Of a stretch of 64,000 bases of DNA, positions 23,494 through 23,841 are shown piece by piece. Both the position numbers and the translations under genes were made by a program. The stretch comes from a virus (taxonomy: Duplodnaviria; Heunggongvirae; Uroviricota; Caudoviricetes). Location: the IMG/VR virus record IMGVR_UViG_3300016472_000494, one strand, 5' to 3'. The notes under the pieces are model-generated. The model made no database searches, was not told where the DNA came from, and was given only the letters and a program-made list of their open reading frames with translations. How positions within the stretch are numbered: the first letter of the stretch is position 1; every line of letters begins with the position of its first letter.

Positions 23494-23841
23494 TTAGAGT
23501 ATAGACCAGTCTTCCGCAAGCATATCTGTCTGAGATGCCAGCCAACCGGTGAGAATTTTCTTGTCAGCAGTAAACATTCTGATGCTGCCAAGTGCCTCAA
23601 AAGTCTCTCCTCCTACCTGCTCTTCAATAACCTGGCGAAGCACGGGGTCATGAATGGCTTTTGTGGGAACAGTTTCTGCTGGAAGCAAAAACAAAAACAT
23701 ATTCTTGCCATTCCAGCCACTGCGTGCAACACGGTGTCCTTGTTTAAGCGCCTCAAGGGCTTCTCCAAAAGTGCCTTTGCCAAGGTGAAGTAGACCTAAA
23801 AGTCCAAAACCAAAAGGTCCAGATGATTCTGATTGTTCCAT
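23494..23841 (-). CDS. DUF2829 / Tad2-like protein (candidate anti-Thoeris cyclic-nucleotide sponge)
   Basis: core [30 protein letters not shown] matches the DUF2829 N-terminal signature (FxEALxALKxGkkV.R.GWNGK); start is uncertain (Met at 23841 used; the track extends to 23889). Confidence 0.5.
   Translation of the reverse strand: [115 protein letters not shown]

Follow-up and report, generated by a model that had tools for sequence, protein, structure and literature searches.

What does the small gene at positions 23494 to 23841 of IMG/VR virus record IMGVR_UViG_3300016472_000494 do for the phage that carries it? The stretch of this record that we analysed, hereafter the window, comprises 64,000 nucleotides (nt), and a first-pass annotation made from its sequence alone had proposed that the gene encodes a DUF2829 protein related to Tad2, the Thoeris anti-defence protein that sequesters the signalling molecule gcADPR (glycocyclic ADP-ribose). 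According to our analysis, it is practically certain that the product belongs to the Tad2 family. We consider it most likely to be a homotetrameric sponge for the Thoeris signal gcADPR, a reading that builds on family membership, fold, conservation of the pocket residues, purifying selection and genomic context, all observed directly, and from which we infer the tetramer, the ligand and the inhibition of Thoeris. The gene, which we call tad2, and its parts are the following (aa, amino acids).

23494..23841, minus strand: tad2-like coding sequence, with ATG at 23841 and TAA at 23494-23496, 115 aa, matching PF11195
23773..23841, minus strand: N-terminal tail, aa 1-23, a vestigial head-to-core linker
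23500..23772, minus strand: Tad2-like (DUF2829, PF11195) domain, aa 24-114, from the Pfam envelope, the AlphaFold2 (AF2) model and Foldseek
23707..23715, minus strand: W43-N44-G45 loop (β1-β2), predicted to form one half of the canonical gcADPR pocket, from alignment with HgmTad2 and SPO1 Tad2
23524..23544, minus strand: W100-L-A-S-Q-T-D106 motif, predicted to form the other half of that pocket, from alignment with HgmTad2 and SptTad2
23587..23682, minus strand: insertion domain, aa 54-85 (β3, α2, β4), from alignment and the AF2 model

The open reading frame (ORF) and the peptides quoted in the first-pass annotation are present, with the quoted signature covering aa 24-53 and the Gly-rich stretch aa 7-23. 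In the profile search, the product matched PF11195 ('Thoeris anti-defense 2-like domain') over aa 24-114 and profile positions 2-72 of 73, with an E-value of 3.8e-23 and 82.2 bits against a gathering cut-off of 25 bits. This was its single Pfam match above the cut-off, and it bears out the proposed DUF2829/Tad2 assignment. Besides, three unannotated PHROGs families matched the product, with E-values from 6e-25 to 7e-12. A phmmer search against all PDB sequences returned seven distinct sequences, every one of them a Tad2 or AcrIIA7, with E-values ranging from 5.5e-22 to 2.8e-13 (5.5e-22 for pdAcrIIA7, 9KZR; 3.8e-21 for HgmTad2/AcrIIA7, 8KBI; 2.1e-18 for SptTad2, 8WJD; 3e-17 for SPO1 Tad2, 8SME/8WJE; and 2.7e-13 for ModTad2, 9EIB/8V3E). 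When 1.84 billion cluster representatives were searched with HMMER, 4,496 family members were recovered at E<=1e-3.

Regarding the fold, a first AF2 model computed from an alignment of close homologues only was mediocre, with a predicted local distance difference test score (pLDDT) of 64.7. We replaced it with a second monomer model based on a diverse alignment of 147 sequences, including 50%-identity cluster representatives, which reached a pLDDT of 89.3 (88-98 over aa 21-115) and a predicted template modelling score (pTM) of 0.78. Its helices (H) and strands (E), namely H25-33, E38-40, E49-53, E56-59, H66-76, E80-83, E86-90, E96-98, H104-108 and E112-114, make up the Tad2 fold: an N-terminal helix α1, an antiparallel β-sheet, and extended loops with α2 and α3. 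All 24 Foldseek matches in the PDB at E<=1e-3 were Tad2, and the next, unrelated match had an E-value of 0.64. SptTad2 (8wjd) was matched with an E-value of 2.7e-11 and a root-mean-square deviation (rmsd) of 2.6 Å, HgmTad2 (8kbk) with an rmsd of 2.3 Å, and ModTad2 with template modelling (TM) scores of 0.83-0.89, normalised to the target. In the structural comparison that the first-pass annotation had suggested, the only structures on which the model superposes are thus solved Tad2 proteins. As such, the window protein is an additional member of a known family, with homologues already known in thousands, and it leaves the current understanding of Tad2 unchanged.

To which ligand does the conserved pocket point? 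In HgmTad2, gcADPR is contacted by W21, N22, G23, M76, A78, T82, V84, W87, L88, S90, T92 and D93, and the W21A/N22A and S90A/T92A/D93A mutants bind it more weakly (Li et al., PMC10680739); the pocket residues of SPO1 Tad2 are W25, N26, W73 and D79 (Yirmiya et al.). According to our alignment A2, the HgmTad2 contacts correspond to W43, N44, G45, M89, T91, K95, L97, W100, L101, S103, T105 and D106 of the window protein, in which the canonical residues W43, N44, G45, M89, W100, L101, S103, T105 and D106 are all present and no direct contact is lost. The W43-N44-G45 loop is the counterpart of both W25/N26 in SPO1 Tad2 and W21/N22/G23 in HgmTad2. The WLASQTD motif is identical in HgmTad2 (W87 to D93) and SptTad2, and reads WVPSQTD in SPO1 Tad2 and WTPSVSD in ModTad2. 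Among the 147 sequences of alignment A4, W43 and W100 were found in every one (147/147 each), D106 in 146, N44 and S103 in 144 each, and G45 in 142; the other pocket positions likewise vary little or not at all. Helix α1, the tetramerisation element in SPO1 Tad2, is conserved as well. Only ~1% of Tad2 proteins have been judged unable to bind gcADPR (Li et al., PMC10680739).

From the solved homologues, we infer a homotetramer in which two V-shaped dimers, four copies of the protein in all, come together. Non-dimeric protomers would enclose two pockets, formed by the W43-N44-G45 loop together with M89, T91, L97, W100, L101, S103, T105 and D106. The gene would be transcribed together with the replication genes of its carrier, a distant crAss-like phage. 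In an infected Thoeris host, the Toll/interleukin-1 receptor (TIR) protein ThsB would make an ADP-ribose-derived signal, most likely 1''-3' gcADPR (3'cADPR), which the sponge would bind tightly and non-covalently; the effector ThsA would then stay inactive and the phage would complete its cycle.

Several points weigh against this reading. The HgmTad2 residue T82, which makes a water-mediated contact, is replaced by K95 here, and A78 by T91. Tad2 specificity is plastic, with tested homologues variously inhibiting type I, II or IV Thoeris, CBASS (cyclic oligonucleotide-based antiphage signalling system) or Pycsar (pyrimidine cyclase system for antiphage resistance), and one of them, ModTad2, having no effect on type I Thoeris. 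The N-terminal tail, which is hydrophobic, leaves the domain beside helix α1, the element of the tetramer interface, where it might conceivably affect how the protein assembles or how a ligand reaches the pocket. Finally, Thoeris is presumed in a host that is itself deduced.

One may also ask if the canonical pocket is tuned to His-ADPR (histidine-linked ADP-ribose, the signal of type II) or to N7-cADPR (N7-cyclic ADP-ribose, type IV), either instead of gcADPR or besides it. ModTad2 binds His-ADPR in an equivalent pocket, Tad2_71 inhibits types I, II and IV, and our model superposes on ModTad2 (at the target-normalised TM scores given above) as well as on the gcADPR binders. The ModTad2 preprint gives no residue-level determinants of His-ADPR versus gcADPR specificity. 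However, the window protein carries the WLASQTD of HgmTad2 and SptTad2 and not the WTPSVSD of ModTad2, which is also the least similar in sequence among the solved structures, and HgmTad2 bound both 1''-2' and 1''-3' gcADPR and inhibited Thoeris in vivo, like other tested Tad2 (PMC10680739). We consider a pocket tuned to these other signals rather unlikely, and keep gcADPR as the probable ligand.

A different question is posed by the insertion domain, that is, the presence of a second pocket. The insertion between β2 and β5 (P54-G85) spans 32 aa, compared with 41 in HgmTad2 and 24 in SPO1 Tad2, and the AF2 model places in it two strands (56-59, β3, and 80-83, β4) and a helix (66-76, α2). The second pocket of HgmTad2 binds cyclic GMP-GMP (cGG) and 3'3'-cyclic GMP-AMP (cGAMP) via R31, S47, F70 and N85, and binding is lost when any one of them is mutated; the insertions reported for Tad2 proteins that bind cyclic dinucleotides (CDNs) range from 35 to 41 aa (PMC10680739). 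Neither in insertion length (32 aa) nor in cGG-contact residues does the window protein agree with a dual sponge of the HgmTad2 type, R31 being replaced by L53, F70 by A83 and N85 by T98, and S47 being deleted. These residues are rare among the 147 relatives, where the R occurs 3 times, the F 5 times and the N 2 times. Throughout the clade, conservation of the insertion equals that of the core, with I63, D65, L68, V71, A83 and I87 invariant, and the subfamily consensus, which begins LLPA..V....DP.L[KR]...E..GG, dominates among the 150 nearest 50%-identity cluster representatives.

A dual sponge would extend the gcADPR reading and not replace it, by adding to the ADPR-type pocket a second one formed by the insertion at the V-dimer interface. 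Candidates for the second ligand would be the Pycsar signals cyclic UMP (cUMP) and cyclic CMP (cCMP), a CBASS dinucleotide other than cGG, or an undescribed Bacteroidota signal. The extended β3-α2-β4 architecture, which opens the dimer-interface pocket in HgmTad2, SptTad2 and ModTad2, is kept in the model; P54 and V58 match P32 and L36 of HgmTad2; and, along with the core-like conservation of the insertion, E56G and V67A, the sole amino-acid changes that separate the natural alleles, both fall in this domain. Against this, the window protein has none of the residues on which, as judged by mutation, cGG/cGAMP binding by HgmTad2 depends, and the insertion is 9 aa shorter than that of HgmTad2, below the CDN-binder range. 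We regard a dual sponge as a tentative extension, with the balance leaning against it. Because the model retains the extended architecture, a second pocket of different specificity is possible but unsupported. It is fairly improbable that the window protein represents a large, structurally uncharacterised Tad2 subfamily whose insertion forms a second pocket with a specificity unlike that of HgmTad2 for cGG/cGAMP or of ModTad2 for cUMP. If it did, there would be an immune signal of environmental Bacteroidota which these crAss-like phages must neutralise. The insertion subtype is abundant and we found neither a solved structure nor a tested member of it, which makes the window protein a reasonable pick for mapping Tad2 ligand specificity.

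The best PDB match of the window protein is an AcrIIA7 (9kzr, 5.5e-22), and an anti-CRISPR role has to be weighed too. In such a role, the head-less tetramer would bind the trans-activating CRISPR RNA (tracrRNA) in a basic groove and block the assembly of the Cas9 ribonucleoprotein. Head-less AcrIIA7 binds tracrRNA via K58, K66, K71, K93 and R101 (Lee and Park, PMC13133391), and the activity of pdAcrIIA7 needs its head domain to be absent, although head-bearing AcrIIA7 still tetramerises (PMC13133391). The window protein is head-less, and three of the five groove residues are kept (K58 as K33, K71 as K46 and R101 as R69). However, S41 takes the place of K66, without which RNA is not bound, and the position of K93 is deleted. 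K33 and K46 recur throughout the family, SPO1 Tad2 (likewise with S at the K66 position) included, and for this reason they are uninformative on an AcrIIA7 role. Besides, the window protein is acidic, with an isoelectric point (pI) of 5.3 and a net charge of -4, in comparison with a pI of 8.9 for the HgmTad2/AcrIIA7 core, and an independent study found HgmTad2 to have no anti-Cas9 activity in vitro or in vivo (Li et al., PMC10680739). An anti-CRISPR function is in our view very unlikely, and the gcADPR sponge stands as the preferred reading.

Is the gene maintained? The identical Tad2 protein was called on 17 metagenome contigs, and P0001, a 98%-identical allele, appears in 106 blocks of the collection's index, including freshwater Joint Genome Institute (JGI) samples; out of these 106 blocks we read 21 contigs. 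The two natural alleles differ by 12-15 synonymous changes and by the 2 amino-acid changes mentioned above. In comparison with the syntenic contig L097 (5001-5288), identity is 88% for the Tad2 core and 56-67% for the neighbours, among them the dUTPase, the helicase and the HNH-like protein. The gene is under purifying selection, and the difference from the flanking replication genes shows tight constraint on what we read as a small-molecule sponge. Cores with 80-90% identity are also found in contexts, and following N-terminal domains, that are unrelated to one another. Such conservation of the core amid changing contexts is the pattern expected of a strongly constrained, horizontally exchanged module. 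We also considered constraint at the nucleotide level on the first 95 nt, invariant between alleles, and rejected it: the flanking 200-nt blocks are also 98-100% identical, which points to mosaic recency.

The N-terminus required separate attention. The first-pass annotation had left the start uncertain, a doubt that the codons dispel. ATG, GTG and TTG are all absent from codons 2-47, so that a whole domain can be had only from the ATG at 23841. According to the codon table, the next ATG is that of M48, and a protein begun there would be without helix α1 and the W-N-G loop. The two in-frame TTG codons upstream, at 23889 and 23883, fall within the preceding gene and would merely extend the protein. 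The same ATG was chosen by the gene calls in 13 of 13 related metagenome contigs. With no alternative in codons 2-47, a start that removes the odd N-terminus is excluded, and hence production of the domain entails translation of the first 23 residues. The sequence before the start (AAAAACGTA-ATG) has no Shine-Dalgarno motif, the absence of which would fit a Bacteroidota host.

The same annotation had called the Gly-rich N-terminus atypical, and it is indeed unlike that of most homologues. Only 2-7 residues precede the FG of helix α1 in most of the 120 closest homologues, and nearly all alignments in the 4,496-member search begin at query residues 21-25. Its origin is not a mis-called start but homology to the linkers of two metagenome proteins, P0216 (155 aa) and P0206 (174 aa, with an HgmTad2-like core), which carry an N-terminal helical domain of ~50 aa (the head) before the linker. 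The linker reads LEQTESPGPYGMLHYGRGTFG / LEQTESPGPYGMLHYGRGTFGEA after the P0216 head and PQLDSPGPFGSLHLGRGTFG / PQLDSPGPFGSLHLGRGTFGQA after the P0206 head; the corresponding segment in P0002 is MEQLTSPGPFGLLHVGRGTFGEA. The motif E-Q-x-x-S-P-G-P-[FY]-G-x-L-H-x-G-[RK]-G-T-F-G is common to P0216, P0206 and the window tail, and the tail has a 5-residue in-frame insertion (FGLLG) relative to the two linkers. By tblastn, residues 51-154 of P0216 align to window positions 23844-23497, one codon upstream of the tad2 ATG, and the phmmer and tblastn alignments of both proteins start at the initiation codon of the window ORF or next to it. With tblastn (E<5), neither of the two heads was found in the window, nor was a detached head gene. 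Judged by these alignments, the tail is a vestigial head-to-core linker from head-bearing Tad2 variants, and not random or mis-annotated sequence.

The AF2 model leaves aa 1-11 disordered, with a pLDDT below 50, and predicts a short helix for aa 16-19. The 23-residue tail probably has no required role, and it is unlikely to prevent tetramer assembly because head-bearing AcrIIA7 still tetramerises. A role as membrane anchor or signal peptide was rejected, since the hydrophobic stretch covers only ~12 residues and is preceded by acidic ones. As a separate observation on this Tad2 clade, N-terminal extensions are seen in the metagenome gene calls P0008, P0009, P0035, P0039, P0044 and P0053. Many database entries of the clade have spurious extensions with an internal true start ('...NKMVENQN'), and there are also genuine N-terminal fusions, to a MKxYIGTK...SWSPK domain, to an ARNPKNHED domain, or as a tandem DUF2829 (P0018).

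In L097, tad2 takes the ordinary 95-aa form, and the 58-aa gene found upstream of it in the window is absent; relative to L097, the window lineage has an insertion of ~260 nt that carries this holin-like gene and the first ~21 tad2 codons. One could see in this an inactive relic, in which the insertion of a cassette displaced the original start and left a hydrophobic tail that disturbs folding or tetramerisation. The tail is lineage-specific, hydrophobic and modelled with low confidence, and the ordinary short form of the syntenic relative agrees with such a history. Nevertheless, the reading frame and all the pocket residues are intact, synonymous differences between alleles far outnumber nonsynonymous ones (12-15 to 2), the exact protein recurs on 17 contigs and the P0001 allele in 106 index blocks from many samples, and homologues with a head form tetramers in spite of N-terminal additions that are far longer. 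We therefore hold it to be extremely unlikely that tad2 is a relic, and continue with a functional sponge as the probable reading.

Which genes surround tad2? Its neighbours are the following.

23849..24025, minus strand: 58-aa two-helix membrane protein of the Phage_holin_10 (Pam3 gp28) family (PF23987, E 3.9e-15)
24046..24462, minus strand: 138-aa Cys/His-rich HNH-like protein (weak PHROG HNH endonuclease matches, 5.3e-5 and 1.3e-4)
23150..23467, minus strand: 105-aa basic protein, downstream of tad2 (pI 9.7; synteny conserved)
22028..23137, minus strand: 369-aa superfamily-2 helicase (ResIII + Helicase_C; PHROG 16 DNA helicase, 1.4e-37)

The stop codon of the 58-aa holin-like gene lies 7 nt before the tad2 ATG. 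The 138-aa protein has no Pfam match, and an H-H...C-x-x-C-H motif is visible in its sequence; the 105-aa protein matched neither Pfam nor PHROG families. The minus-strand block runs in the order dUTPase, HNH-like, holin-like, tad2, helicase, uracil-DNA glycosylase and DnaB, which is a replication module. Of the surroundings described by the first-pass annotation, the helicase is there and so, by weak matches, is the HNH gene, while the 'typical anti-defence neighbourhood' was an impression: the gene sits in the replication module. Neither a promoter nor a terminator of its own could be detected for tad2, as sigma-70-like sites were at chance level and terminator-like matches lay inside coding sequence. 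Rfam scans of the 20-28 kb region and of the whole window gave nothing except a tRNA-Thr. Further along the block, at 24490-24786 (minus strand), we observed an extremely acidic 98-aa protein with 26 D/E versus 5 K/R and a pI of 4.05, which is 60% identical to its counterpart in L097, with conserved synteny. It has no Pfam or PHROG match, and its composition resembles that of DNA-mimic anti-restriction proteins.

Regarding the phage itself, the 18-30 kb region of the window had no megablast match among 50,697 phage records, and it is therefore a phage without a close cultured or deposited relative. Its crAss-like features are located as follows.

55135-63144 (plus strand), 4527-7231 (minus strand), 11461-13443 (minus strand) and 32681-35922 (minus strand): crAss-like phage features of the window, from gene content

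The large terminase subunit (TerL; 55135-57333, plus strand) has matches, at ~25% identity, only in crAss-like, Bacteroides, Flavobacterium psychrophilum and Cellulophaga phages, with one Leptolyngbya record as the exception. The window also encodes a portal, a major head protein, a DNA polymerase, both ribonucleotide reductase subunits and CobS/CobT-like ATPase genes, a set that fits a crAss-like genome of ~100-125 kb. The window is from a distant crAss-like phage, uncultured, from freshwater metagenomes. Among bacterial assemblies, the closest Tad2 genes are in Flavobacteriaceae, Bacteroidetes and Chitinophagaceae metagenome-assembled genomes. Because both the TerL matches and these nearest Tad2 genes point there, the host is probably a freshwater member of Bacteroidota. 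A Tad2 anti-Thoeris candidate in such a freshwater lineage would imply that TIR/Thoeris-type immunity pressures environmental Bacteroidota phages.

Some other features of this lineage are worth recording. A related 107-kb contig (L010, JGI 3300042554) is syntenic except that a tyrosine integrase of 387 aa (PF00589; 3344-4507) separates its versions of the 122-aa and 98-aa genes, a sign that this crAss-like lineage may have a temperate or integrative variant. The tRNA-Thr (anticodon TGT) is the single one in the window and lies at 51528-51601 (plus strand), where the gene blocks switch from the minus to the plus strand. Between 38000 and 42000 there is a low-GC stretch (0.32-0.35 versus ~0.40 elsewhere) with small ORFs.

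How does the window protein compare with the characterised Tad2 systems? The best sequence matches are HgmTad2, from a human-gut Bacteroides phage (8KBI-8KBM), and pdAcrIIA7, from Phocaeicola dorei (9KZR), with 47-49% identity in alignment A2. With HgmTad2/AcrIIA7 it shares the fold (rmsd 2.3 Å, TM 0.69/0.76), an identical WNG loop and WLASQTD motif, an extended insertion with a β3/β4 hairpin and a long α2, and a Bacteroidota-phage origin. It differs from HgmTad2 in its shorter insertion (32 and not 41 aa), in the loss of the cGG pocket, in being acidic and not basic, and in having a linker-like tail that HgmTad2 lacks; from pdAcrIIA7 it differs by lacking the 48-aa head domain. The top Foldseek match, SptTad2 from Sphingobacterium thalpophilum (8WJD; rmsd over 100 columns), has the same pocket motif; however, it binds cGG at 0.23 nM (PMC10680739) and retains the R, F and N of the cGG pocket, which are L, A and T in the window protein.

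The founding member, SPO1 Tad2 (Gp34.65; 8SME/8SMF/8SMG), gave the highest identity over aligned columns, 58% (A2). Its W25, N26, W73 and D79 are all conserved in the window protein and both proteins are acidic. SPO1 Tad2 sequesters 1''-3' gcADPR and inhibits type I Thoeris (Yirmiya et al.). It differs in its Bacillus host, in having no N-terminal tail, and in a dimer-interface pocket that is closed by the 24-aa insertion and the stacked F44. ModTad2, from a Myroides odoratus prophage (8V3E/9EIB), resembles the window protein in fold (TM up to 0.89, target-normalised), in its Bacteroidota origin and in the extended insertion, but it binds His-ADPR and also cUMP/cCMP (in a second pocket via the extended insertion), does not inhibit type I Thoeris, and has WTPSVSD in place of WLASQTD. 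The uncharacterised P0216 and P0206 share the linker motif with the window protein, which lacks their ~50-aa helical head. The closest solved relatives are the Bacteroidota-phage forms HgmTad2/AcrIIA7 together with SptTad2, yet the window protein lacks their cyclic-dinucleotide pocket residues. What sets it apart, and lends it a modest interest among these systems, is its uncharacterised insertion subtype, its vestigial linker tail, its high conservation relative to the flanking genes and its environmental crAss-like carrier.

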